Source: a virus. From it: a stretch of DNA of 64,000 bases. Where the stretch lies: positions 1-64,000 of the IMG/VR virus record IMGVR_UViG_3300046794_000311. The stretch is one strand, 5' to 3'. The translations under genes and the position numbers were made by a program. The notes beneath the pieces are model-generated. The model ran no database searches and was not told where the DNA came from. It worked only from the letters and a program-made list of their open reading frames with translations. This document shows, piece after piece, positions 5,794 through 44,926 of this stretch. Position 1 is the stretch's first letter. Every line of letters begins with the position of its first letter.

Positions 5794-6548
5794 CGTCCAC
5801 CCTTTCCGTTTGCCCCTTTAGCGAAGTCGTCCGGGGTCATTCCTGCGGGGAGCCTTCCGAAGGACACGAATTCCCCGCCGCCCTTCGGCTTCGGAAGCAA
5901 CTGCATGGTGATGGACACCTGACAGCGGGACGGGATCATCTGCTGGTTCCAGTGGGTGTACTGGATTTCGAGATCCTGGATGACCCCGTAGTAGTTCAGG
6001 GTGTCGCCGACGACGAGGTAGACCGGGACGTACAGCATGGGACCGGCCGCGTCGAAACTGAACTGCCCCTTTCGGAACGACTTCGAGGAGTCGCCCGTGG
6101 CGTCTGCACCCTCGCCGGTTACGTCTACGGATGCGGAGATACCAGTGATCTTGTAGAGCATGGAAATGTCCCAACCCACGCCGAGAGCAGGTACGAATAT
6201 GTTCTCGGCGCCGGACACCCGGGAGGAGTCCCACATCTCGTAGGTCCGGTCGAAAAGCAGGTTGAACTGGACCGTCTGCTGCAACGGCATAAGGAAGTCC
6301 TTTGCCGTCACGTCGTTCGGGTTGAGCGCATTGTCGTCCGCCTGGACCGCTGAATTCACGGAGTGCGAGACATTCAGGACGCTCGGGTTGTACAGGAAAT
6401 TGCACCGGTAGCGCACGCCGTCTACCGGCTTCTCCTGAATGATGAAGCCCCGGCTCAACTTCTTACCCCCGCCAACGAGTGACTGAAGGCCGGGGAGTTT
6501 CGTTATGCGGGGGTCGAAAGAGCCATTGTCCTGGATCCGCGTAGCCAT
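5790..6548 (-). CDS. Tail tube initiator/baseplate-associated protein
   Basis: FLYNPS...FNLLFDRT...GVIQDLEIQYTHWNQQMIPSRCQVSITM resembles contractile-system tube initiators. Follows the tape measure gene. Confidence 0.65.
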   Translation of the reverse strand: MATRIQDNGSFDPRITKLPGLQSLVGGGKKLSRGFIIQEKPVDGVRYRCNFLYNPSVLNVSHSVNSAVQADDNALNPNDVTAKDFLMPLQQTVQFNLLFDRTYEMWDSSRVSGAENIFVPALGVGWDISMLYKITGISASVDVTGEGADATGDSSKSFRKGQFSFDAAGPMLYVPVYLVVGDTLNYYGVIQDLEIQYTHWNQQMIPSRCQVSITMQLLPKPKGGGEFVSFGRLPAGMTPDDFAKGANGKGGR

Positions 6549-9500
6549 TAGTTTCCTGCCGCGATGAGGTTGATTCGGTTGTCCTCGGCGATGGCCTGTA
6601 TGAACTGCTGGGCAGCATCCCGGGCCGCGCGCTGGTCCATGACGCCCTGCACCTGCACGGTGATCGCACCGGAGTGGAAGTTCAGGGTGGGCGTGGCGCC
6701 CTTGGTATTAAGCCCGCCGACGGAGGACATGGCGTTGTTCCCGGCCAGGACCTTGCGCATGGCGTCTGCCTGGTAGGCCGGGATGATCATCTCGCCTGCG
6801 TGGACGCGTGCCGTCTGGTCTACGTCGATGTTCGTCGAGCCGACCGCGTAGCCCTTGTACTTGCCGCCGTTGGCCATGGACTTGATGCCCGGCGCGTTGG
6901 CCAGCGTGTGGTATCGCGACTCCTCGTAGCGCACGCCCGCGATGATGTTGTCGACGGGGTTCCAGATGTCCTTGTGGCCCTTGATCGAGTACGCGTTGAA
7001 CGTCGAGTCGATCGTCTGCATGATGCCCTTGGACGGGTGACCCGCCCTGGCGTTTGAGTCGGTGCGGTTGATCGCGTGAGGGTTACCCGACGACTCGTGC
7101 TGGATCATCGTGTTGACGATGGACTCGTTCTGCTTGGTGTCCTGGTGCAGGATCCCGAGCGCCGTCTTGATCCACTTCTTGACGTTGCCGGACGGCATGT
7201 TGGTCGGGACCGCGTCGTTGGAGACGTCGTCCTTCGAGTCCTTGCTGCCCGCGTCGGAGCCGATACCCGCGCCGGTCGAGGTGATGCCGGACGCGATGGC
7301 GTCCGCCTCCTCGATCGAGCCGTACGAGCCGACGTCACCGCCGAAGCCCATGGTGGACAGGCGGTTGGAGTCCGAACCGGCCGTCTCCTCGGTGTCGCTG
7401 GACGGGTCTCCGAGGTTGCCGACGGAACCGAGGACCCGCACAGCGTTGGTGAACTCGCTCGGCCGGAAGGACCGGACGCGGACCACGGCTCCCGTGTGCG
7501 GCGCCTCAATGATCTTGCCGCCGCCGATGCACATCACGACGTGGTGTGCCGGGTTGCCGTTGAAGAGCAGGTCTCCCGCGCGCACGTCACTGAGGTTGAC
7601 CTTCTTGCCCGCCCGCTGCTGCTGCGCGGCCGTACGGGGCAGGGACACCCCGATCTGCCGGAACGAATACTGGATCAGGCCGGAGCAGTCGAAGCCCTTC
7701 GGAGTGCTGCCACCCCAGACGTACTTCACGCCCAGGTACCTCATGGCGACCTTGATAACGGCAGCAGCAGTCTTGCCCGCGCCCTGCGTACCTGTGGCCT
7801 TCGCGCCGGACGTCTTGCTACCCGTGGCGGAAGCCGCACCGCCCGAGCCACCAGCACCACCGAAGAAGTTGCTGACGATGCCCGTGCCCGCGCCGATCAC
7901 ACCACCGACCGCTGCACCGATACCGGTACCGATGACCGGGACGACGGAGCCGATGGCCGCACCCGTCAGGGCGCCCGCTCCGGCGTCGACAGCGACGTGG
8001 CCCCACTTGTTGCCAGTCGAGCCCTTCTTGCTGACGTGGTCGACGACCTTCGAGCCGAAGTGGTGTGTGAGGTAGGCGCCGATACCGAAACCGCCAGCAG
8101 CGCCCAGAGCGGCCCCAGACAGGTCCAGGGCACCTCCCAGAGCACCGAAGCCCGCAGCCTCTCCCGTACCGCCACCCAGGGCCGCCCGAGCAGCACCGAG
8201 CAGACCACCGCCTCCGCTTCCGCCCATACCGGCCAGGCGTCCCACCGAGGCGAGACCGCGCATGGTGCCGTAGGCGCCGATGCCGGAGCCGATGCTGGAG
8301 CCCAGCAGGGAGCCAGCACCGCCGGTGAATCCCAGGACGGAGTCCGCGCCGGTCGACTTGAGGACGCCCTGGAGCGCGGTGGAGAACATGTCCAGGTACT
8401 TCGTCGCGGTCTGGAGACCGGACGTGAAGGCATCGTTGGTGTTGACTTCCTGGTTCCGCAGGGTGCCCGCGCGGGTCATCAGGGTGTTGGCGGTCGACCC
8501 GCCGATGCCCATCTTTCCGAGCGCGCTCTGGGCGGAGTTCTTCTTCTCCTGCGTGGATCCGCTGTCGCGCTGGTTGGCGAGGCTGACGTACGTCTGCGCA
8601 GAACCACCGTGGATCTGCGCGAGCATCATGCCCTTGAGTTCACCCTTGACCAGTTGCAGGGTGTTCTGGTCCAGGCCCCAGGAGTTCAGCGACTGGTTCA
8701 GGCCGGAGCCCGGGTCGTCGAGGGTTGCCGACAACTGCGCGTTCGTCTTGACCCGCTTGAGTTCCGGGAACCGCTGGTAGATCTGCTGGGCGATCTGTCG
8801 AGGGCTCTGCTTCGTGCCGTTCTTGATCGTCTGGATGCCCATGCCGCGCAGCGTGTTGTACGTCGTAGCGCTCCACGCTGCGGCCGTACCCTGCGCACGC
8901 TGCGCCTCGGACATGCCCGGGTTCAGGTATCCCGAGGTGCCCTTGACGTAGTTCCAGTTCGTGTTGAAGTTCGCAGAGCCGGGCGACAGGCCCATCTGCG
9001 ACATCGTGGCGTAGGCCGACGCCGCGTCCTGGGTGGACTGGGCGGTGAAGTTGTTCTTGAAGGCCGCGTCACGCAGCGTGTGCCAGGACTGGGACGAGTA
9101 CTGCGCCGCCTGGTAGGCGGTCGTCTGCATGTCGACCTGGTCGGGCAACTGCTTCTGGCCCCACGCGACGACGCCCTGGAGACCGCTCTTGAGGGTGTAG
9201 CGGCTCTTCTGGCCGCCGTTGTTTCCCGAGCCACCACCCAGACGGGGGGTGTTCGTGCCACCGGAGCCACCAGAACCGCCGGAGCCACCGTTGTTGGACG
9301 CACCGCCACCCTGCGAGCCGTTGTTGGAGAAGCGGACGGCGCCCCCGTTACCGACAGAGCCGACGTTACGGGCGTAGTTGCTGGTGCCGTTCCATACGTC
9401 TCCCAGCGCCATGCCCACGCCCCGGGAACGGGACATCTGCCCGACTCCGGTGTTTACGCCCTTGAGACCCTTGTTCAGGTCGTTGATGGTACGCGTCAGG

Positions 9501-9571
9501 GCAGAGATCGCGTCCTGGGCCTTATTCCACCCCAGGAGCGTTCCCTGCCCCGCCACAGTGCTCTCAGCCAT
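6548..9571 (-). CDS. Tape measure protein with NlpC/P60 endopeptidase and SLT lytic transglycosylase domains
   Basis: Gly/Ala-rich helical body. YVWGGSTPKGFDCSGL...HHVVM is NlpC/P60. IQHESSGNPHAINRTDSNA..GHPSKGIMQTI is SLT. The ATG at 9571 overlaps the upstream stop. Confidence 0.85.
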   Translation of the reverse strand: MAESTVAGQGTLLGWNKAQDAISALTRTINDLNKGLKGVNTGVGQMSRSRGVGMALGDVWNGTSNYARNVGSVGNGGAVRFSNNGSQGGGASNNGGSGGSGGSGGTNTPRLGGGSGNNGGQKSRYTLKSGLQGVVAWGQKQLPDQVDMQTTAYQAAQYSSQSWHTLRDAAFKNNFTAQSTQDAASAYATMSQMGLSPGSANFNTNWNYVKGTSGYLNPGMSEAQRAQGTAAAWSATTYNTLRGMGIQTIKNGTKQSPRQIAQQIYQRFPELKRVKTNAQLSATLDDPGSGLNQSLNSWGLDQNTLQLVKGELKGMMLAQIHGGSAQTYVSLANQRDSGSTQEKKNSAQSALGKMGIGGSTANTLMTRAGTLRNQEVNTNDAFTSGLQTATKYLDMFSTALQGVLKSTGADSVLGFTGGAGSLLGSSIGSGIGAYGTMRGLASVGRLAGMGGSGGGGLLGAARAALGGGTGEAAGFGALGGALDLSGAALGAAGGFGIGAYLTHHFGSKVVDHVSKKGSTGNKWGHVAVDAGAGALTGAAIGSVVPVIGTGIGAAVGGVIGAGTGIVSNFFGGAGGSGGAASATGSKTSGAKATGTQGAGKTAAAVIKVAMRYLGVKYVWGGSTPKGFDCSGLIQYSFRQIGVSLPRTAAQQQRAGKKVNLSDVRAGDLLFNGNPAHHVVMCIGGGKIIEAPHTGAVVRVRSFRPSEFTNAVRVLGSVGNLGDPSSDTEETAGSDSNRLSTMGFGGDVGSYGSIEEADAIASGITSTGAGIGSDAGSKDSKDDVSNDAVPTNMPSGNVKKWIKTALGILHQDTKQNESIVNTMIQHESSGNPHAINRTDSNARAGHPSKGIMQTIDSTFNAYSIKGHKDIWNPVDNIIAGVRYEESRYHTLANAPGIKSMANGGKYKGYAVGSTNIDVDQTARVHAGEMIIPAYQADAMRKVLAGNNAMSSVGGLNTKGATPTLNFHSGAITVQVQGVMDQRAARDAAQQFIQAIAEDNRINLIAAGN

Positions 9572-9740
9572 TCTCTGCCTCAGCAATTCGCCTATGTCGC
9601 TGCGCCCTGAACCACTTCACCCAGTGAAGACGCTCGCGCACGGTCAACCGGCGAATCTCGCTGAGGCTCCACGCCGGACTTAGTTCGACTAGTTGCTCGT
9701 ATTCGAAGTACGTGTCGTGGTAGTTACAGGCCCTGAAACA
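9564..9740 (-). CDS. Tail assembly chaperone C-terminal extension (probable frameshift product)
   Basis: Open frame +1 relative to the end of 9724..10587, with no usable start codon of its own. WSLSEIRRLTVRER resembles gpGT-like extensions. Ends at the tape measure start. Confidence 0.6.
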   Translation of the reverse strand, partial: CFRACNYHDTYFEYEQLVELSPAWSLSEIRRLTVRERLHWVKWFRAQRHRRIAEAENG

Positions 9741-23795: not shown

Positions 23796-24869
23796 TCATC
23801 GTGCCCGGCGGAGCTGCACGACGTTCTGCTGGGAGACCATGCCCGTCAGGAACGGCTTGCCCTTCATCGTCTCGTCCCGGCGCCGCTTCTCACTCGACAG
23901 CCCCAGGTACCGCTCCGTGGTCGTCATGGACGAGTGGTGCAGCAGCGCGGAGACCGTACGCAGCGCCGCGTCGTAGCCGACGTCCTCGGCGAGCTGGTCG
24001 AAGTAGGCACGGGCCACCGCCCGGCGCACCGTGTGCGTGCCCTCGTAGCGGGTCGGCAGGCCCAGCTTGGCCAGGGCGCCCTTGACGATCTTCTCCGTAC
24101 GCTCCACCGGCCGGTCGGCGTGGTAGACGAACGGGGTCCGCTCATACACCCGGCGACCCAGCGCCTCGTCGAAGTAGTGCGTCTTGATCTGGTTGCCGGA
24201 CCGGGCCGGGAAGAGGTAGTCGTCCGGCCGCAGCGGGCGCCCGAGCAGAGCCGCGTACTCCTCGAACCAGATCCGCAGCTCCCGCTCCAGGTCGGCAGTC
24301 AGTGGCATCTCGTCCTCCTCCTTGGTCTTGATCACGGTCACGAAGACCTCGGAGGCCGCGAAGTCGACGTCGCCGACGCGCAGGTTCACCAGCTCGCTCG
24401 CGCGGCACGCGGTGTTCACGGCCGTCGCGAGGTAGGCGCGGTGCATGGCGCACTCGGACTGGTCCAGGAGCTGGAGGAGGATGCCCGGCGCGGGCTGCAT
24501 GCGCTGCTTGCGCACCTCGGGCAGTGGGTCGACCAGGCACAGGTAGTCGTTGCGCGGAGCGAGCCCCCGGGCGTGGGAGTAGCCGAAGAACAGGCTCAGC
24601 CGCTTGCGGTAGTGGTTGTGCGTGCTCGGCCCCACGGCCGCCCGGAGCTGCTGGCCCTTGATGCGGGTGACGTGGATGTCCATCAGCCCGCCGTCGCCGT
24701 AGAAGAAGTCACGGACCTGCTCAGGGGTGAGGGCCGCGAAGTCGGGGTTGCCGACGTGCTCGGCGAAGCGGGGCAGCAGGTTGTCGTCGGCGCGCATCGT
24801 GTTGTCGGCCTTGGCGGCTCGCCGGTTGCCCAGGTACTCGTCGATGGCGCTGCGCAGTGCGATGGTCAC
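23796..24869 (-). CDS. Tyrosine recombinase/integrase
   Basis: Catalytic set: R (TACRASEL), K (IKTK), HxxR (HTVRR), H (LLHHS), Y (TERY). GTG start after GGAGG. Confidence 0.9.
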   Translation of the reverse strand: MTIALRSAIDEYLGNRRAAKADNTMRADDNLLPRFAEHVGNPDFAALTPEQVRDFFYGDGGLMDIHVTRIKGQQLRAAVGPSTHNHYRKRLSLFFGYSHARGLAPRNDYLCLVDPLPEVRKQRMQPAPGILLQLLDQSECAMHRAYLATAVNTACRASELVNLRVGDVDFAASEVFVTVIKTKEEDEMPLTADLERELRIWFEEYAALLGRPLRPDDYLFPARSGNQIKTHYFDEALGRRVYERTPFVYHADRPVERTEKIVKGALAKLGLPTRYEGTHTVRRAVARAYFDQLAEDVGYDAALRTVSALLHHSSMTTTERYLGLSSEKRRRDETMKGKPFLTGMVSQQNVVQLRRAR

Positions 24870-24903
24870 GCTTCCTCCTGTTGCGGGGTGAGCTGCGACC
24901 CTC

Positions 24904-24982
24904 AGCGTAAAGACGTCAAGCCTTCTCGTCAATGCGCTGGACAACAGGTTATGTAGACGTAATCCTGAAGGCGTAGTACGGT
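24904..24982. promoter_or_regulatory. Divergent promoters for the two recombinase units
   Basis: Minus strand: TTGACG-17-TACGCT (24932..24904). Plus strand: TAGACG-17-TACGGT (24954..24982), 7 nt before the ATG at 24990, consistent with a leaderless mRNA. Confidence 0.55.
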
Positions 24983-24989
24983 TCCCGTC

Positions 24990-25148
24990 ATGATGACGAA
25001 CACGCTCACCGGGCTTAATACCTCGGGCTCCGACGAGCCCCAGGTCACCGTGACCCTCACCAACAACCGGATGGAAGACAGCCGCTGGAACCGGCTCCTC
25101 ACCATCCTGTTCACCCCGCAGGACGAAGACACACCCGCAGCGACCTAG
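24990..25148 (+). CDS. 52-aa hypothetical protein (candidate directionality factor/regulator)
   Basis: MMTNTLTGLNTSGSDEPQVTVTLTNNRMEDSRWNRLLTILFTPQDEDTPAAT. Below the ORF-track cutoff; GC3-rich codons. Confidence 0.55.
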   Translation: MMTNTLTGLNTSGSDEPQVTVTLTNNRMEDSRWNRLLTILFTPQDEDTPAAT

Positions 25149-25272
25149 CACAACTACCCCACACAGGCGGGCCGTTCCTCATATACTGCGCTGATCAACA
25201 AGACGGGCCTGCCCATCGCGAGTCTAGGCGCGAGGGACAGGCCCTTGATCAGTCTGTAAAGGAGACTGAACC

Positions 25273-27366
25273 ATGGCCAGCATAGCGGCCGAGCGCGCCC
25301 GCGAACGCGCCCTGAAGGTAAATGGCACCCGCCCCGGCACCCCCGGCACCCCCGGCACCTTCAAGTCCTGTACCGCCCTCGCACGCATCGTCAAGCGCGT
25401 CGGCGCGTACCTCCGCGTCTCCACCAAGGACCAGATCGTCGGCTACGGCCTCGACGTCCAGCTCAAGGGCATCCAGGACAACATCGACGTCAAGAACACG
25501 ATGGAGGCGCGCAACGGCACCAACATCGTCTGGGAACTCTCCGACGTCTACGAGGACGCAGGCGAGTCCGGCGCCAAGCAGGACCGCCCCGAGATGATGC
25601 GCCTGGAGCGCGACGTACTCGCCAAGAAGATCGACGTCGTCGCCGTCCACAAGTTCGACCGCATCGGTCGCACCGGCCGCGCCTTCTGGCACTGGGTCTG
25701 GGCCCTCGAAGACGCCGGTACCTCGATCATGTCCGTCACCCAGGAGATCGACACCACCACGACCCACGGCGTCACCGCACTCCAGCAGCTCGCGTCCTTC
25801 TCCGAAATGGAATGGCGCACCATCCTGGAGCGCACCCAGAACGGCCTCAACATGAAGGCCGCAGCCGGAGGCTGGACCGGCGGTCCCCCGCCCTTCGGCT
25901 ACTGCATCGAGAACCAGGGCAAGCGCGACTCCAAGCTGGCTCTGCACGCCGAGGAGTGCCGCACCCTCGACATCGCCGCCCAGATGATCGTCGAAGGCGG
26001 ATACACCGTCGACCGCGCCGCGCACATGCTCAACCTCATCGGCCGCCTCACCCGCAAGGGCGTGGAGTGGACCGGATCCAACCTGCGGCACAAGTTCTTC
26101 AACACCGCCCTGGACGGTTTCGTCGTCTACCGAAACACCGACGAGGTAGTCAACAAGCGCCGCAAGCGCGCCACCAAGATGAACCCCGACGGCACCCCCA
26201 AGCACGGCCCGATGATGATCATCGACACCCCGATGGTCTTCGAGATCGACCGGCTCATGTCCATCCGCCACGCCCTCAAGCGAAACGGCTGGAACCTCAC
26301 CGGCCCGTACAAGTACCACCCGCTCAGCACCCGCGTGATCGGTGAATGCGGCGCCCACTACACCGGGGTCTGGGTAAAGGCAGAAGACCGCCGTACCTAC
26401 CGATGCACCGGAAACAAATGCGGGGACTCGGTGATCGACGCCGTGGCGCTCGAAGAGGTCGTATGGGACAGCCTGAAGAACTTCCTCGGCGACAAGGAGA
26501 AGCTGCGCGAGATCGCCAAGGACTGGGTCACCACCGCGCCGGATCACCGCAAGATGTACGAGGCGCGTATTGAAGAACTCACCCGGGAGATCTCGGGCCT
26601 GCGTGAGCTGACCACCACCACGCTGGTGAACCTCGCGAAGGCGGGCGTCGATGCGCTGGCCATCAATTCAGCAGTGGCGAAGCTGAACGAGGAGATCAAC
26701 AACAAGCAGGCGATGCTGGACGACGCCGTGTCAATGCTGTCGGAGGCAGAAGAGGCCGCTACTCGGGCCGAGGATTTCCAGCGTCTGGTGGAGATCGCCA
26801 GCTTCAACCTGGAGCACATCACCGACCGGCAGAAGGCCGAAGTGATGGACCTGCTGGAGATTCAGGTGTCGCTCATGGGGCCGGTTCCGCTGGACGGCCG
26901 TTTCGGGCCGGACTCCGACATTGAGCAGTGGTTCGGGAAGCGCGGCGTTCAGCCGGTCGAGATGACCGATGCGCTGTGGGAGGAGGTCCGTCCTCGGATC
27001 AGCTTCCGGGTCACGAAGAAGAGCCACGATCTGCGGTCGCTGGTGGAGGGTCTGCTCTACAAGGCCCGCACGGGTTGCCCGTGGTCTGAGATGCCGGAGC
27101 ACTTCCCGCCGAAGGAGGCGCTGAGGGCCCGCTGGAGGGCCTGGAAGGACGGGGCGTGGGAGAGCATCGTCGAGCCCCTTCTGGAGCCCGCTCCGCCGCG
27201 TAAGCCGCCTCTGCCGCCCATGAAGGTGACGGGGAACATCGACCCCCGTCTGGTCGAGTTCACGAACGGGCAGGCGACGAGCCAGGTTCCGCACTCTGGT
27301 GGACGAGCGTCCAGGGGTTCGTTCACGTACGTCATCAACCTGGAAAAATGGCGATTGGCCGCCTGA
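25273..27366 (+). CDS. Large serine recombinase with C-terminal IS5-transposase-like DUF4096 domain
   Basis: YLRVST catalytic motif, ESGAKQDRPEM, DRIGR, GGPPPFGY recombinase domain, partial Zn ribbon and coiled coil. Tail MTDALWEEVRP...RSLVEGLLYKARTGCPWSEMPEHFPP is DUF4096-like. Confidence 0.9.
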   Translation: MASIAAERARERALKVNGTRPGTPGTPGTFKSCTALARIVKRVGAYLRVSTKDQIVGYGLDVQLKGIQDNIDVKNTMEARNGTNIVWELSDVYEDAGESGAKQDRPEMMRLERDVLAKKIDVVAVHKFDRIGRTGRAFWHWVWALEDAGTSIMSVTQEIDTTTTHGVTALQQLASFSEMEWRTILERTQNGLNMKAAAGGWTGGPPPFGYCIENQGKRDSKLALHAEECRTLDIAAQMIVEGGYTVDRAAHMLNLIGRLTRKGVEWTGSNLRHKFFNTALDGFVVYRNTDEVVNKRRKRATKMNPDGTPKHGPMMIIDTPMVFEIDRLMSIRHALKRNGWNLTGPYKYHPLSTRVIGECGAHYTGVWVKAEDRRTYRCTGNKCGDSVIDAVALEEVVWDSLKNFLGDKEKLREIAKDWVTTAPDHRKMYEARIEELTREISGLRELTTTTLVNLAKAGVDALAINSAVAKLNEEINNKQAMLDDAVSMLSEAEEAATRAEDFQRLVEIASFNLEHITDRQKAEVMDLLEIQVSLMGPVPLDGRFGPDSDIEQWFGKRGVQPVEMTDALWEEVRPRISFRVTKKSHDLRSLVEGLLYKARTGCPWSEMPEHFPPKEALRARWRAWKDGAWESIVEPLLEPAPPRKPPLPPMKVTGNIDPRLVEFTNGQATSQVPHSGGRASRGSFTYVINLEKWRLAA

Positions 27367-38139: not shown

Positions 38140-38424
38140 ATGATCTGGTACTGCGACGAATGCAACGACTGGGGCACGTCCGACACCGAGGTGGACGCGG
38201 CCGTCGACAAGCAGAACCACCTGGACGCCCACCGGGGCCGCTACGTTCCCGAACCGGCCGCCGAGGATGAGCCGGACGAGGTCACTGTCTGGACGACGAA
38301 GCACGTGGCGTGGGGTATCACGGTTGTGCTCGGGCTACTGTCCGCACGCTTCCCGGCCCTGCTGGGGGTATCAGCGGTTTCTGCGCTGCTCACGTTCGTG
38401 GTGACAGGCATCTCAGACGACTGA
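38140..38424 (+). CDS. Small Zn-finger/membrane protein
   Basis: CDEC...H...H followed by two hydrophobic helices. Confidence 0.55.
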   Translation: MIWYCDECNDWGTSDTEVDAAVDKQNHLDAHRGRYVPEPAAEDEPDEVTVWTTKHVAWGITVVLGLLSARFPALLGVSAVSALLTFVVTGISDD

Positions 38425-38475
38425 GCCCCGGGTAACCACGTGGGTTCCGGGGCTGTTCAGTCGTGCAGGGAGGTG

Positions 38476-38796
38476 TTACGCGATCCGACGGACGGACACT
38501 CGGAGGGTCGCATTCGCGGAACCGCCGGTGACCTTGACGCGGAAGTACCGCGCAGCCGGGTTGAACACCGAGTTGTTCGACAGTGAGGACATCGGGGAGA
38601 GCGGAAGATCAGCGAACCCAAGCGGGTTCACGCCGTCGACCGACTCCTCGATGCCGACAGACCCACTGCCGTAGAGGGCGAAAGCAATGCGGGCCGACAG
38701 GATGCTGCTGCTGTCCACCCACTCCCCGGTGTAGGTGCCCGCACCGTCGAGCGTGGTGTCAGCCTCTACCGGGAGGTCAGGTCGCTTGAAGGACAT
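38476..38796 (-). CDS. Hypothetical beta-rich protein
   Basis: AAGG RBS and ARYFRVKVT jelly-roll-like motif. Confidence 0.6.
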   Translation of the reverse strand: MSFKRPDLPVEADTTLDGAGTYTGEWVDSSSILSARIAFALYGSGSVGIEESVDGVNPLGFADLPLSPMSSLSNNSVFNPAARYFRVKVTGGSANATLRVSVRRIA

Positions 38797-38901
38797 GTAG
38801 TGCCTTTCTTACGGAAACGAGAACCCGGCGTTTTGAGATGGGGCCGGGTAACCATCAGCGAGCTATTTGTTCATAGGAGCATGGTCGCTATCCGCTCCTA
38901 G

Positions 38902-38974
38902 CTCCCCCACCTGGACTCGAACCAGGAACTCGCGGATTAACAGTCCGCTGCTCTGCCAATTGAGCTATGGAGGA
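38902..38974 (-). tRNA. tRNA-Asn(GTT), no encoded CCA
   Basis: TCCTCCATAGCTCAATTGGCAGAGCAGCGGACTGTTAATCCGCGAGTTCCTGGTTCGAGTCCAGGTGGGGGAG folds as a cloverleaf. Confidence 0.95.
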
Positions 38975-38979
38975 TTGTG

Positions 38980-39059
38980 TAGCCAAGGTGGGACTCGAAC
39001 CCACACGCCTTTCGGCGCCGCTTTTGAGGCGGCTGACTGTGCCATTCGTCTACTCGGCC
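38980..39059 (-). tRNA. tRNA-Leu(CAA), long variable arm
   Basis: Anticodon arm GCCGC-CTCAAAA-GCGGC, variable arm GCC-GAAA-GGC, T arm GTGGG-TTCGAGT-CCCAC. Confidence 0.9.
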
Positions 39060-39147
39060 GAACGTGCTCCGCACTGTTGTATCCGGTTTAGCACGGGCAC
39101 TCCAGTCCAGGGTTCTTACCGGTCCCGGACTTTCCTACTGGTGAATC

Positions 39148-39771
39148 CTACTTCACCGTGTAGCGCCCGTAGTAAACGGACCGCGTCCACGGCTTGTAGT
39201 AGTTCACGCCCTTACCGGGACGCTCCGACTCCAGCCACGTCGTGGAATTGACGTAGATAGCCACGTGGTAAACGCTGCCGTGGGAGTCGTGAACGAAGAC
39301 CAGGTCGCCCTTCTGGGGCTTCGAGACCTTCGCGCTGGAGCGGTACTGCGCGTCCGCGACGCGGGGGATGCTCTTCCCCAGCTTCTTGAACGTGTAGTAG
39401 GTCAGGCCGGAGCAGTCGAAGCCCGCCGACGGCGAGGTGCCGCCCCAGACGTACCGCGTACCGATGTACTTGGCGGCCTGGTTGACGATCTTCGTGCCCG
39501 ACGAGGTCGAGCTGCTGGTCGTAGGAGGCTTCGGGGTGGACGTGGAGGCGGTCAGGTAGATCTTCTCGCCGACGTAGATCCTGTTCGGGTTGGATATGTG
39601 GTTGATGGACGCGAGGTGCTGATACGTCGTCTTGTGGGCTGATGCGATCCCGCTCAGGGTTTGTCCGCTCTTCACGGTCACGTAACTGGCCGACGCGTCC
39701 GCGACCGAAGCCGCGATCGGGGTTATGGCCAGTGCGCCCGCAAGAGCGAGTCCAGCGATCCTCTTATTCAT
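39148..39771 (-). CDS. Secreted LysM + NlpC/P60 peptidoglycan endopeptidase
   Basis: Signal peptide ([18 protein letters not shown]), LysM ([11 protein letters not shown]...[11 protein letters not shown]), NlpC/P60 (YVWGG..FDCSGL..HVAIY). Confidence 0.92.
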
Positions 39772-39783
39772 GATGCACTCCGC

Positions 39784-39929
39784 ACGCCTGCGAAATTAGG
39801 TGACGGGCTCGGGATAAGTGCTGTTCCCTACCACAAATGGTTCTGCGGATTCGCCCCAGTACTGCGTTTCGGTCTCCCGCCCCTGTTCAGGGTTGATTGC
39901 AGTTTTTGTCCAGGAACAGGGCTCGGCGT
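39784..39929 (-). ncRNA. c-di-AMP (ydaO/yuaA) riboswitch, actinobacterial type
   Basis: Ordered consensus blocks CGCCGAGCCCTG...GGGAGACC...GGGGCGAATC...GTAGGG...CCCGAGCCCGTCACCTAA...AGGCG, immediately 5' of a cell-wall hydrolase. Confidence 0.85.
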
Positions 39930-39939
39930 CTGGACAAAG

Positions 39940-40012
39940 TGGCCCCCCTTGGAATCGCACCAAGATCTCCCGCTTTTCAGGCGGGCGCATTAACTGCCTC
40001 TGCCAAAGGGCC
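39940..40012 (-). tRNA. tRNA-Phe(GAA) with atypical T-loop
   Basis: Anticodon arm CCCGC-CTGAAAA-GCGGG. T-loop reads TGCGATT rather than TTCGATT. Confidence 0.75.
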
Positions 40013-40017
40013 TTGAG

Positions 40018-40091
40018 TCTGGACGGCAGGATTCGAACCTGCGACCCCCTGAATCCAAATCAGGCGCGCTACCGGGCTGCGCTACGTCCAG
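40018..40091 (-). tRNA. tRNA-Pro(TGG)
   Basis: CTGGACGTAGCGCAGCCCGGTAGCGCGCCTGATTTGGATTCAGGGGGTCGCAGGTTCGAATCCTGCCGTCCAGA folds as a cloverleaf. Confidence 0.95.
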
Positions 40092-40105
40092 AAGTTGATG
40101 GCTTC

Positions 40106-40136
40106 ACATTACGGTATCAGGGATAGGGCTTGTCAA
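40106..40136 (-). promoter_or_regulatory. Probable promoter of the tRNA/riboswitch operon
   Basis: TTGACA-19-TAATGT (spacing is long), with ATTACGG half-site overlapping the -10. Confidence 0.45.
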
Positions 40137-40499
40137 CCCCATTGAGCAACTAGCTTGCGTTGGGAGAGAGTGTTCCCCGCCGGGTCTTACGCCTCGCTTG
40201 GGGTAGCGGGCCAAGGGGCTGCCCTAGCGGGCGGGGAACAGGAAGCGGCCGAGGCAGAACGCCTGCAAGGCCGGGATGAGCGCGGGCATGCTGCCGGAGG
40301 GGAGGTGGTTCCCCTGGCCCGGCCGTCGCTCGCTCATCGTGTTCATGCATCCTTTTTACAGGATCACGGTTACGGCTTTGTAATCCGAGGCCACTGCCCC
40401 GACGCCTCGCGCGAGGCGGGGGGTAGGGCACTGTCCTGGACAGCGAAAAGGGCCGGGGGACGCCGTTGTCCCTCCGACCCTTGCTGTGTCAGATGAAAG

Positions 40500-40883
40500 C
40501 TACTTGTGCGCGGCCTCGAACTCCTGGATGTACGACTTGGGGATCCGCCCCGTGGAGGAGATCTCCCGGCCCTGCTCCTTCAGCCACTGGCGCACGTCGG
40601 CAGCGGTGAAGGTCTGACCACCCTTGCCCCGGATGGCCTTGAGCACCTGCGTACCCACGCGCTTCTCGGTGTTGTGCGCGATCGAGGTGAACGGGTTCAG
40701 GGACTCCACGAGAAGCTGCTGATGCTCATCGCATAGGTCCATGAAATACCTCGTTGTCCCGTACGTGATGGCCGTGGCCTCGTTGTCCGGCACGTCCTGG
40801 CCACAGGTCTCCATCTTGCGACCGCGCTTCACCTTGAAGTCGCAGAACTTGTCGACGCTGACTCGCTCACCCATGTGATCCAC
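40500..40883 (-). CDS. lsr2: Lsr2-like nucleoid-associated protein
   Basis: YFMDL dimerisation strand and C-terminal DVRQWLKEQG.EISSTGRIP..IQEFEAAH DNA-binding domain. Confidence 0.85.
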   Translation of the reverse strand: MDHMGERVSVDKFCDFKVKRGRKMETCGQDVPDNEATAITYGTTRYFMDLCDEHQQLLVESLNPFTSIAHNTEKRVGTQVLKAIRGKGGQTFTAADVRQWLKEQGREISSTGRIPKSYIQEFEAAHK

Positions 40884-40999
40884 TCCTTAAACGGCCTCGC
40901 CGTCGGCGCAGCGATCGGCACGATGACTATGTTGGTCATCGACCAGGCTGTTGTCAAGCGACTGCCGTCACACGCTCGACAAGGCCGTTCCAGGAACAC

Positions 41000-42352: not shown

Positions 42353-43276
42353 TCAGAAGTTTCCGGGCGCCACCTGAAGGACTCGCAAGCCGAGATTGCG
42401 CCACATGTCGACCACCTGGTTGCGGTCGTCGAGGACCAGCCAGACGTTGTACCGGCCCAGGATCTCCTGCCGGTAGATCTCCTCCTTCACGATCGAGTCC
42501 TTGCGCATGTCGTACTCGGATCGCATCAGCAGCGGCGACAGGGAGGTCCAGTCCCCCACGTGCTGCACCAGCCAGGCCCGGGTCTTCTTGTAGGCCCTCG
42601 CGTCGCGGCCGGAGACGAAGATGATCTCGGCGCCAGCGTCCCGCAGCGTGTTCACCAGGTCGACGACGTCCTGGTGTGCCTCGTCCTCGTCCACGCGGTC
42701 CCAGTCGAAGGGACTGCGGTCGGCCATCTTGGCCAGCGTTCCGTCCAGGTCCACCAGAACGGCGTGAGGGCGGCCCTGGATGTACTCCGGCGGGTCGGCG
42801 GGCTTCGGGGCCAGGTACTTCTCGTACATGTCCCTGATGACCTTCTCGCCGACGCTCTTCTCCCGCTTCAGGTCGCGGCGGACGCAGGTATTAAGCGGGA
42901 CGTCGGTGAAGTCCTTGACGAAGAACCGGGCACCTTCCTCCTCCGCGATCTTCGCCAGCCGCTCCTCGTGGAACGGGTTGAGGTTGGTGTCGGCGACGAT
43001 CACGGAGACGCCCTGGAGCAGGAACGTCTTCACCAGCGCGTCGCGGGCCTTGACGACCTGGCGCTCGTGCTTGCCGTGGAAGCGGTCGGCGTGCAGCATC
43101 GCCCGCAGGTCGTCCTTGCACACGACGACGGCGCCGCCCGGGACAGCCTTGAGCACCTGCTCCCGGGCCCACGTCGTCTTGCCCGAGCCCGGCAGGCCCT
43201 TGGTCATGGTCAGCGTCGTCACGGGCTTCTCCTTGGTCTTCTTCGGTCCGCAGCACTGGCACTTCAGCAGGCTCAT
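42353..43276 (-). CDS. Polynucleotide 5'-kinase/3'-phosphatase (T4 PseT-like)
   Basis: GLPGSGKTT P-loop, ADTNL, HAD motifs DLDGTLA, SGR and LDDR. Confidence 0.95.
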   Translation of the reverse strand: MSLLKCQCCGPKKTKEKPVTTLTMTKGLPGSGKTTWAREQVLKAVPGGAVVVCKDDLRAMLHADRFHGKHERQVVKARDALVKTFLLQGVSVIVADTNLNPFHEERLAKIAEEEGARFFVKDFTDVPLNTCVRRDLKREKSVGEKVIRDMYEKYLAPKPADPPEYIQGRPHAVLVDLDGTLAKMADRSPFDWDRVDEDEAHQDVVDLVNTLRDAGAEIIFVSGRDARAYKKTRAWLVQHVGDWTSLSPLLMRSEYDMRKDSIVKEEIYRQEILGRYNVWLVLDDRNQVVDMWRNLGLRVLQVAPGNF

Positions 43277-43572
43277 CGACAGCACCCGTCGCAGCCGTGC
43301 AGGCCCTCGTAGGGGTGGTAGTCCACGCCCTGCATCAGCCGCTTGTAGTCGAGGTCGTCCGGGTCGGGGTGACCGACACCGTGGGGGCACATCCGCTCCA
43401 TCAGCGCGCGGTCCATACGGAAGTGCTGGGGCCAGTCGGCCATGTGGTGATCGGAGGGGTTGTGTACGCAGCAGTGGCGGCCGATGCAGTCCTTGCGGGG
43501 GTGGGCGAGGAGTCGTTCCCCGCCCACCAGTTCCGCCGCCTCGAACCAGCCGCCGAGGTCGTCGGGCTCCAT
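43273..43572 (-). CDS. Cys/His-rich metal-binding hypothetical protein
   Basis: HPRKDCIGRHCCVHNPSDHHM...CPHGVGHPDPD...HGCDGCC. Translationally coupled to the ligase and Pnk genes. Confidence 0.7.
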   Translation of the reverse strand: MEPDDLGGWFEAAELVGGERLLAHPRKDCIGRHCCVHNPSDHHMADWPQHFRMDRALMERMCPHGVGHPDPDDLDYKRLMQGVDYHPYEGLHGCDGCCR

Positions 43573-44675
43573 CAGGCCGCGTCCTCCGAGAGCGTCTGGA
43601 ACGGCTTCTCGTACGTCGGCCGGACCCGCTTCCAGACGTCGGCCGTGATGTCCTTGCCGTCGTAGAGACGGAACAGGACGCCCGGGTACGGAGTCTCCTG
43701 GGCCAGCAGCGCGAACTCCTTGCGCCGCTTCTTCACGTCCACCTCGGGCCGACGCAGACGGCGCGTGATCCAGTCGAAGTCGTCCTGGATGCCGTCGTAG
43801 GCCCGCTTGTAGTCGCCCTCCAGCCGGTGCACCTGCTGATGAACCCACGTGTAGAACTCGTCCGGCACGCGGTCGATCCAGGAGTCGATGCCCTGCCCGT
43901 TGGCCAGCGCGTCCCACACGGAGAGGGTGGAGACGTTCGTCAGGATCCGGTGCAGGCGGATGTACTCGTCGTACTTGAACTTCACCCGGCGGTCGCTCCA
44001 GGGGAAGCGGACGACGAAGCCCTCGTGGTTCTTCTCCTGAATCCGCATCGCTTCGAGGACGTCGACCATCGTCTGGAAGGAGAGCGGGCGGGTCACCGGG
44101 CCCTGCCAGTCGTAGGAAGCGGACGGCAGCGTCTTGCCGGTCGTGGTGTCGATGACCGCGAGCAGGACCAGGTCGTCCCGCCCCTTGTAGTCGACGACGA
44201 TCCGGTTCTCCGGGTAGATGATCTCGAAGAGATAGGTCAGGCCCAGAATCGGCTCGAAGGTCGGGTACCGCTCGTGCAGGACCTTCGTGGCGTGCTGGGC
44301 CTGGGGGCTGGTGAAGGAGCCACGCGACGCTATCGCGTGCTCCCCGGTATTAAGCCCGTACAGGATGCCCAGGGAGCCGTCCCACTTGATGTACCCCTCG
44401 ACCGGCTGCTGGAGCAGCGTCGAGTGCAGGTGCGGGACCTGCTCCCAGTTGAAGAACTTCCTGAACGGCCGGGAGACGACCTCCCCGGTGTGGCTGTTGA
44501 CGATCAGTCCTCGCGTCTGCTCGGTGACGTCGTTCCACAGACCGTCGAACTGGGTCTTGTTCGTGTAGTTGTAGATGGTCAGCGGCTCGGTGGGGTGGTT
44601 CTGCTTGCGGACGTAGCCCTGGTCGAGCATGTCCTGGAGCAGGCTCGCCGACATGATGCTGAGCAGGTTCGTCAA
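43572..44675 (-). CDS. RNA ligase (T4 Rnl1 family)
   Basis: IYNYT, RGLIV..RPFRKFFNW, motif I KWDGSLG, FEIIYPENRIVV, EGFVV and RVKFK motifs. Confidence 0.93.
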   Translation of the reverse strand: MTNLLSIMSASLLQDMLDQGYVRKQNHPTEPLTIYNYTNKTQFDGLWNDVTEQTRGLIVNSHTGEVVSRPFRKFFNWEQVPHLHSTLLQQPVEGYIKWDGSLGILYGLNTGEHAIASRGSFTSPQAQHATKVLHERYPTFEPILGLTYLFEIIYPENRIVVDYKGRDDLVLLAVIDTTTGKTLPSASYDWQGPVTRPLSFQTMVDVLEAMRIQEKNHEGFVVRFPWSDRRVKFKYDEYIRLHRILTNVSTLSVWDALANGQGIDSWIDRVPDEFYTWVHQQVHRLEGDYKRAYDGIQDDFDWITRRLRRPEVDVKKRRKEFALLAQETPYPGVLFRLYDGKDITADVWKRVRPTYEKPFQTLSEDAA

Positions 44676-44698
44676 GGTGTCCTCCGGGGTGTGGTGGG

Positions 44699-44926
44699 TC
44701 AGAGACGCTGGTCGAGGGCCGCGACGACGCGCTTGGCGAAGGTCTCGTAGAACTCCTCGGGCAGGTGGTCGATGGCGAACCACTTCTTGGCCTCAAGGAC
44801 GACGATGTCGACGGCCTCCTGGCGCTTCTCTCCCTGGCGCCGCAGCCAGTCCTGGGCGGCACTCTCGTGGGGGATGGCCAGGTGGCCGAGGTTCATGAGG
44901 GGGCGGTCATCCTGCTTCGCGGTCAT
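44699..44926 (-). CDS. Hypothetical protein
   Basis: ORF within the operon. Confidence 0.55.
   Translation of the reverse strand: MTAKQDDRPLMNLGHLAIPHESAAQDWLRRQGEKRQEAVDIVVLEAKKWFAIDHLPEEFYETFAKRVVAALDQRL

Follow-up and report, generated by a model that had tools for sequence, protein, structure and literature searches.

On the minus strand of a Streptomyces phage genome, at 39775–39928 of the 64,000-nucleotide (nt) stretch analysed here (the window, positions 1–64,000 of the 85,747-bp IMG/VR virus record IMGVR_UViG_3300046794_000311), lies an RNA element of the cyclic di-AMP (c-di-AMP) riboswitch class. It is set among tRNA genes and stands directly before the gene of a secreted-type LysM-NlpC/P60 peptidoglycan endopeptidase. 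We consider it rather probable that this is a functional member of its class, carried by a temperate, tRNA-rich phage, and that it exerts translational OFF control of an accessory exported hydrolase. The phage thus probably ties the hydrolase to a second messenger of its host.

The class assignment comes from the Rfam model RF00379 (c-di-AMP, ydaO/kimA), which matches 39771–39911 of the minus strand with 58.3 bits and an E of 6e-11, the gathering score being 38. The score is identical when the whole 85,747-bp record is scanned, and in relatives it ranges from 54.8 to 71.9 bits. By model score the element belongs to the c-di-AMP riboswitch class. A preliminary description of the window had proposed a ydaO-type aptamer shortly after tRNA-Phe, at 39929–39784; the covariance model now finds one, and the proposed span fits the register of helix P1 and the RNAalifold structure better than does the span of the Rfam match itself.

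The helices were defined on an alignment of 13 distinct leader sequences, namely the window, 11 IMG/VR relatives and a Streptomyces prophage, which are 91% identical. On the minus strand they are P1 (CGCC 39925–39928 with GGCG 39785–39788), a long P2 (39914–39921 with 39881–39888), P3 (39875–39880 with 39790–39795), P5 (39854–39856 with 39805–39807), P6 (39844–39848 with 39831–39835) and P7 (39825–39828 with 39811–39814). RNAalifold, run independently, returns all six. With P1 as CGCC/GGCG and the long P2, 99.8% of 579 cells are paired across the 13 leaders, against 38–49% in a control in which the partners were slid by 1–3 columns. Both sides change at two pairs and one side at six: a P1 pair turns from CG to UA in 3/13 leaders and to UG in 2/13, and a P2 pair from UA to CG in one leader and to UG in another. 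This covariation is real, although thin, as sequences 91% identical leave little to vary. The nested helices P1–P3 and P5–P7 are thus preserved by pair-keeping changes. In the relative L010, cmscan itself chooses CGCC/GGCG as P1, with a 33-nt insertion in P2. The register of the Rfam match in the window, with UGCA/GGCG as P1 and a short P2, was rejected: its P1 is just 65% paired, and one of its pairs is unpaired in 13/13 sequences. It follows from the corrected P1 register that the aptamer starts 12 nt after the discriminator base of tRNA-Phe.

The 3′ strand of P1 ends 13 nt upstream of the ATG of the LysM-NlpC/P60 gene, a leader location typical of the class. By sequence and computed coordinates, the Shine-Dalgarno (SD) motif GGAG occupies 39778–39781 (minus strand), 3 nt past P1 and 6 nt upstream of the ATG; this is the ribosome-binding site that the preliminary description had named. 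It overlaps the 3′ strand of a candidate pseudoknot between the P7 loop GCACUU (39816–39821) and the 3′ tail GAGUGC (39775–39780), which is suggested by complementarity and by the position of the class pseudoknot. All six pairs are present in 13/13 sequences, none varying; host copies use other loop/tail pairs, e.g. CCUUCCG/CGGAAGG. No terminator-like site was found within 38400–40900, including the 88-nt spacer between the reading frame and tRNA-Leu. A translational OFF switch is favoured by the position of the SD motif, 3 nt away from P1 and within a strand of the candidate pseudoknot, and by the lack of a terminator.

Is there a precedent for such an arrangement? Corynebacterium glutamicum nlpC has a riboswitch that turns translation OFF and for which a CTCC-GGAG pseudoknot is proposed; a second reporter placed downstream of it was unaffected (PMC9960051; this paper, PMC10117811 and PMC5473149 are cited throughout from excerpts). 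Like the phage copy, it is an actinobacterial aptamer of the c-di-AMP class placed directly before an NlpC/P60 peptidase, with no canonical terminator and with the GGAG ribosome-binding site in the proposed pseudoknot (PMC9960051). The C. glutamicum copy is chromosomal and has its own 5′ untranslated region (PMC9960051), whereas the phage copy begins 11 nt after a tRNA. The phage copy differs further in its long P2 with a 25-nt loop, in a helix between tRNA trailer and P2 loop (helix X, below) and in a C/G swap at two junction positions. Within the host genus, S. coelicolor and S. venezuelae are reported to have seven and six wall hydrolases, respectively, with ydaO-like riboswitches, rpfA among them (PMC10117811). 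These resemble the phage system in host genus, riboswitch class and kind of regulated gene (PMC10117811).

The gene at 39148–39771 (minus strand) encodes 207 amino acids (aa). Pfam finds NLPC_P60 at residues 104–193 (82.9 bits, cut-off 23) and LysM at residues 32–73 (50.4 bits), and the N-terminus resembles, by eye, a Sec signal peptide; the order of signal peptide, LysM and NlpC/P60 after the aptamer is that of the preliminary description. An alignment of 14 homologues shows no variation at Cys120, which belongs to a DCSG motif, or at His169. As third member of the triad the window's protein has Glu; 13/14 sequences have Glu, His, Asp, Gln or Asn at this position, and one (P0048) has Ala. Judged by domain score, catalytic Cys and His and polar third residue, the predicted product is an NlpC/P60 (C40) endopeptidase. 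The phage genome has a separate GH25 gene as endolysin candidate (G000 72243–73223, minus strand; L075:8243–9223), so the riboswitch-led hydrolase is distinct from it and is regarded as an accessory enzyme.

How widely is the cassette distributed? IMG/VR was scanned with two narrow 18-letter patterns, which found 21 and 10 stretches; patterns this narrow do not allow a full count of c-di-AMP riboswitches in viruses. RF00379 precedes the hydrolase in 18/18 related IMG/VR loci and in two further contigs, i.e. in 20 beyond the window, while the pattern matches L048 and L056 have no RF00379. The cassette also occurs in a prophage of Streptomyces sp. NPDC002088. The order tRNA-Pro, tRNA-Phe, riboswitch, reading frame, tRNA-Leu, tRNA-Asn is kept in 18/19 cassettes, the exception being L010, without tRNA-Phe; L009, a cut locus, was left out of this count. 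Among the 19 cassettes the hydrolase has a LysM domain in 10 (207–217 aa) and lacks it in 9 (162–165 aa). The leader was found in 1/401 Streptomyces genomes, which is the lysogen, with no blastn-level relative in the other 400, and a protein search of the genome contigs with the hydrolase gave a single locus. With the leader as blastn query, 50,697 records of cultured phages gave only four matches, all at chance level (E 7). RF00379 (E <= 0.1) is absent from six cultured Streptomyces phages with NlpC/P60 homologues, picked from 263 matching records (BRock, pSt2308, Wakanda, Quantum, Zuko and Galactica).

The riboswitch had been described as phage-encoded, and the genomic context agrees: it lies about 39.8 kb inside the 85.7-kb record, flanked by phage genes, and in the same place in relatives. 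The record (CheckV completeness 86%) encodes tape measure, portal and terminase. A tyrosine integrase (23796–25151, minus strand) and a serine recombinase (25273–27366, plus strand; 697 aa, DUF4096 at its C-terminus) stand back to back. A syntenic prophage of 75–85% identity occupies ~78–183 kb (~105 kb) of contig C18 in the genome of Streptomyces sp. NPDC002088. Its junction maps between window positions 25002 and 27407, and a DNA match to this recombinase segment is absent from the prophage. With virion genes, an integrase and an integrated host copy all present, this is a temperate tailed Streptomyces phage. The lysogen genome holds a DAC-domain gene, and none was found in the phage. It also holds eight RF00379 riboswitches of its own, which by eye precede M23, NlpC/P60 and transglycosylase-like genes; all 26 of the 26 genomes examined from the host's order contain RF00379, in 3–10 copies each.

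ARAGORN, Rfam and Pfam together bear out the minus-strand order given in the preliminary description: tRNA-Pro (tgg; 40017–40091; Rfam tRNA 69 bits), tRNA-Phe (gaa; 39939–40012; CCA not encoded, discriminator A at 39940), the aptamer, the hydrolase gene, tRNA-Leu (caa; 38979–39059), which follows the hydrolase stop codon by 88 nt, and tRNA-Asn (gtt; 38901–38974). The promoter that it placed upstream of tRNA-Pro stands in part. A −35-like TTGACA at 40131–40136 (minus strand) is invariant in 13/13 aligned relatives amid variable flanks, which makes it the candidate operon promoter, and TAATGT (TANNNT) follows at 40106–40111 (minus strand), 19 nt after it; a sigma-70 consensus scan did not call it. 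There is no room for a promoter of the aptamer's own, as merely 11 nt separate tRNA-Phe from P1. The distance from stop codon to tRNA-Leu is 42–88 nt among the cassettes. Given so short a spacer, and no terminator-like site in that of the window, tRNA-Leu and tRNA-Asn are probably co-transcribed with the hydrolase. Contigs from the RNA libraries of a soil study and a root study cover 39072–39361 and 39425–39779; two more (39653–39914 and 39611–39967) run from the aptamer into the reading frame, and another (39840–39996) joins tRNA-Phe and aptamer. None of the listed contigs crosses the junction of reading frame and tRNA-Leu. The bins 40092–40200 and 38850–38895, which have no cover in four RNA runs, were not counted as evidence. 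Upstream of the candidate promoter there is also a 10-nt inverted repeat, GTTCCCCGCC and GGCGGGGAAC (40172–40181 and 40230–40239, minus strand), whose arms are kept in most relatives and whose spacer is variable.

We picture the system as follows. Transcription from a promoter upstream of tRNA-Pro would yield a single precursor with tRNA-Pro, tRNA-Phe, aptamer, hydrolase, tRNA-Leu and tRNA-Asn, and excision of tRNA-Phe would leave an mRNA 5′ end about 11 nt before P1. At high levels of c-di-AMP, which the host makes with DisA, the SD motif would be held by the folded aptamer and hydrolase translation would be off; such are the ligand, sign and level of control that we infer. Once c-di-AMP falls, the hydrolase would be made and exported. 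Phage or prophage would in this way couple a wall-remodelling enzyme to the signal used for the host's own riboswitch-controlled wall hydrolases, which may be the purpose of the arrangement; the more specific roles that the preliminary description named, such as germination or superinfection exclusion, would be candidate purposes.

Several observations weigh against this account. The pseudoknot is without covariation, because its strands never vary within the clade, and a shuffle test of loop and tail, made with crude windows, is non-significant for every sequence, 176–957 of 1000 shuffles giving a pairing of equal length. Nearest-neighbour folding puts the minimum-free-energy structure in a non-aptamer fold (−63.2 vs −53.0 kcal/mol). 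Even without ligand, the same model pairs the SD motif in 13/13 leaders, with differing partners; for this reason folding cannot give the sign of regulation, which is taken from precedent instead. One precedent points elsewhere: in S. coelicolor rpfA, c-di-AMP binding reportedly leads to premature termination, a transcription attenuation without canonical terminator (PMC10117811, PMC9960051). Two near-invariant junction nucleotides differ in all phage copies from those in 74/76 cellular copies. The sigma-70 consensus scan yields no promoter at the TTGACA site, and the RNA-library contigs, which may be DNA carry-over, cannot prove a single transcript.

Could the same aptamer and ligand act on the transcript instead of on its translation? 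Control of elongation or stability, by attenuation as in rpfA or by Rho polarity on the untranslated reading frame, would let c-di-AMP lower tRNA-Leu and tRNA-Asn as well, and we hold this to be unlikely, if worth keeping in mind. Apart from the rpfA precedent of termination without a canonical terminator (PMC10117811, PMC9960051), it can draw on the probable presence of the downstream tRNAs on the same transcript. Yet no terminator-like hairpin with a U-tract follows the aptamer, SD motif and start codon abut it in the layout of a translational switch, and no listed RNA-library contig extends across the junction to tRNA-Leu. Together with the unaffected downstream reporter in C. glutamicum (PMC9960051), the missing terminator-like site and the SD motif in the 3′ edge of the aptamer leave the gating of downstream tRNAs, which the preliminary description had entertained, unsupported.

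The junction nucleotides raise a different question, that of the ligand. The comparison drew on 77 RF00379 copies in cellular DNA, taken from 26 genomes within the host's order: 8 came from the lysogen, 29 were the best loci and 40 were picked from the middle or low range of scores. The motif was located in 76/77 by a crude regular expression, two of whose matches look off-target. At the bracketed position of CA[G]CUAA, the cellular copies have G in 76/76 and the phage copies C in 13/13; at that of ACC[C]A, the cellular copies have C in 74/76 and the phage copies G in 13/13. The host copies in the lysogen, with G in CAGCUAA and C in ACCCA, are also longer, at 157–174 nt vs about 154 nt in the phage. 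The crystallised Thermoanaerobacter-type ydaO aptamer (PDB 4QLM/4QLN, 108 nt, PMC5393176) likewise differs from the phage RNA, by eye, in the G of CAGCUAA, in the CCC of GACCCA and in having no P2 hairpin. It resembles it, again by eye, in GGGGCGAAU, CCCGAGCCCG, UAGGG and CCCGAGCCCGUCA, in a P1 of the CGCU/AGCG type, which the phage relatives L011, L012 and L017 have, and in a pseudoknot of P7 loop and 3′ tail, a candidate feature in the phage RNA (PMC5393176). The remaining conserved junction blocks mostly match the consensus or the crystallised RNA. The reciprocal change, C to G and G to C, resembles a flipped tertiary C:G pair and hints at a possible tertiary pair in the class, although the swap rests on a single evolutionary event.

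In other riboswitch classes, single core changes retune specificity, e.g. from cyclic di-GMP (c-di-GMP-I) to cyclic GMP-AMP (cGAMP). The phage aptamer might, on this model, be a specificity variant in which one pocket or both, through the core swaps, now suit a different ligand, e.g. another cyclic dinucleotide, or in which just one pocket still works. Fixation of the swap in 13/13 phage copies, set against near-invariant cellular copies, speaks for this. We nevertheless judge it improbable: a reciprocal swap fits a flipped tertiary pair with the fold preserved, the regulated gene is of a classic c-di-AMP target type, and the conserved blocks other than these match those of the crystallised c-di-AMP aptamer (PMC5393176).

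A further feature of the leader is helix X. The trailer of tRNA-Phe, UUUGUCCAG (39930–39938, minus strand), pairs with CUGGACAAA (39905–39913) in the P2 loop. All nine pairs are kept in 13/13 sequences; one C-G pair has become U-G, at no pair have both sides changed, and the helix appears in the minimum-free-energy fold of 11/13 leaders. Folded as isolated hairpins, the two differ little in stability, helix X having −11.7 kcal/mol and the long P2 −12.5 kcal/mol, and the models suggest that helix X would either form a pseudoknot with P2 or compete with it. In RNAalifold the trailer's UCC pairs with GGA of the SD motif, as an alternative extension of P1. Helix X is also kept in L010, where the upstream tRNA is tRNA-Pro.

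A second candidate structure, a hairpin of the P3 3′ strand and UGCGGAGU that would sequester the SD motif without ligand, was rejected as a conserved feature, its strength varying among the leaders: −8.8 kcal/mol in three, −6.8 in two, −5.6 in three, −3.6 in one and −2.8 in three. L010 has a different hairpin in its place, and the strong form is confined to the subgroup of the window.

From these structures one may construct a leader that serves mainly RNA processing or stability, in which helix X would protect the 5′ end as a hairpin or act upstream as an anti-aptamer, and in which the switch could be ON-type or constitutive. The 9-bp helix kept in 13/13 leaders, about as stable as the long P2, lends itself to this, as does the −8.8 kcal/mol hairpin, which would hide the SD motif without ligand in the window's subgroup. 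Such a leader seems quite improbable to us, since helix X has no both-side change, 7/13 leaders have only a weak SD hairpin (−2.8 to −5.6 kcal/mol) and L010 has none, the ligand-free SD partners differ among sequences, and the characterised class members are all OFF switches in the excerpted account of PMC9960051. It would likewise be a long shot to suppose that the swap-retuned aptamer senses another cyclic dinucleotide, e.g. a defence signal, or c-di-AMP at a different threshold, and that with helix X it forms a bistable switch that governs downstream tRNA supply as well.

That the element is host DNA, mis-binned or mis-assembled, or a decaying relic is scarcely credible, since, although the RF00379 matches of L061 and L066 near provirus ends do resemble host flank, the element sits deep between phage genes, recurs at this place in 20 further viral contigs and a prophage, shows compensatory changes and was found among the 401 Streptomyces genomes in the lysogen only. 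The two matches named lie 1.3–2.1 kb from record ends, at what look like host-flanked edges of proviruses; in L066 (IMGVR_UViG_2932454522_000001, 1346–1513) RF00379 precedes a LysM-M23 peptidase, 1.3 kb from the provirus edge. In L065 (IMGVR_UViG_3300046506_000169, 6144–6287) it stands at the end of a 6.4-kb fragment.

Returning to translational OFF control of the hydrolase by c-di-AMP, we see a class of riboswitch already known whose setting here is new and rare: a clade of temperate Streptomyces phages keeps the aptamer before a secreted-type wall hydrolase. This suggests that the phage listens to a second messenger of its host, one linked to osmotic state, wall homeostasis and germination. 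With the aptamer embedded among tRNAs, the layout also provides a natural example of a riboswitch whose 5′ end may be set by tRNA processing, and the C/G swap directs attention to a possible tertiary pair in the class. The system is experimentally accessible: a public strain collection includes the lysogen, Streptomyces sp. NPDC002088, and for model streptomycetes there are mutants of disA and ataC.

The preliminary description had called riboswitches rarely reported in phages, and a 2017 survey says the same: its excerpt lists c-di-GMP-I in prophages of Clostridioides difficile and glutamine riboswitches in cyanophages, and no c-di-AMP class (PMC5473149). As in our case, these are host-type aptamers residing on a phage, and c-di-GMP-I also senses a cyclic dinucleotide; they belong to other riboswitch classes and other hosts (PMC5473149). 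In full-text searches, with subscription papers and supplements outside reach, we found no published phage-borne c-di-AMP riboswitch; mentions of ydaO in PMC10986025 and PMC9569102 refer to host copies. The tRNA array of the cultured phage pSt2308, one of the large Streptomyces phages, is annotated with small reading frames among the tRNAs and in this resembles the array of the window; its tRNA-Leu and tRNA-Asn share 94% identity with their counterparts in the window. Unlike the window, pSt2308 has no riboswitch in the array, and its NlpC/P60 homologue lies elsewhere, near the endolysin, without RF00379 upstream.

Other wall enzymes and neighbouring genes of the phage complete the picture. The tape measure gene (6548–9586, minus strand) bears an NlpC/P60 domain of its own (7448–7732), so that the phage encodes two C40 peptidases. 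In the G001 prophage of Streptomyces sp. NPDC002088, the endolysin was not found directly after the tail genes and is located elsewhere; the syntenic gene there encodes Amidase_2 and PG_binding_1 (G001:C18 136933–137883; L074:2934–3884, plus strand), a catalytic type different from GH25. Immediately upstream of the tRNA/riboswitch operon is a gene for an Lsr2-like nucleoid-associated protein (40500–40883, minus strand). Just upstream of the tRNA cluster, two adjoining genes (42353–43390 and 43572–44783, both on the minus strand) form a tRNA-repair-like pair, consisting of a polynucleotide kinase/phosphatase (phrog_505, E 4.5e-95) and an RNA ligase of the T4 Rnl1 type (PF09511).

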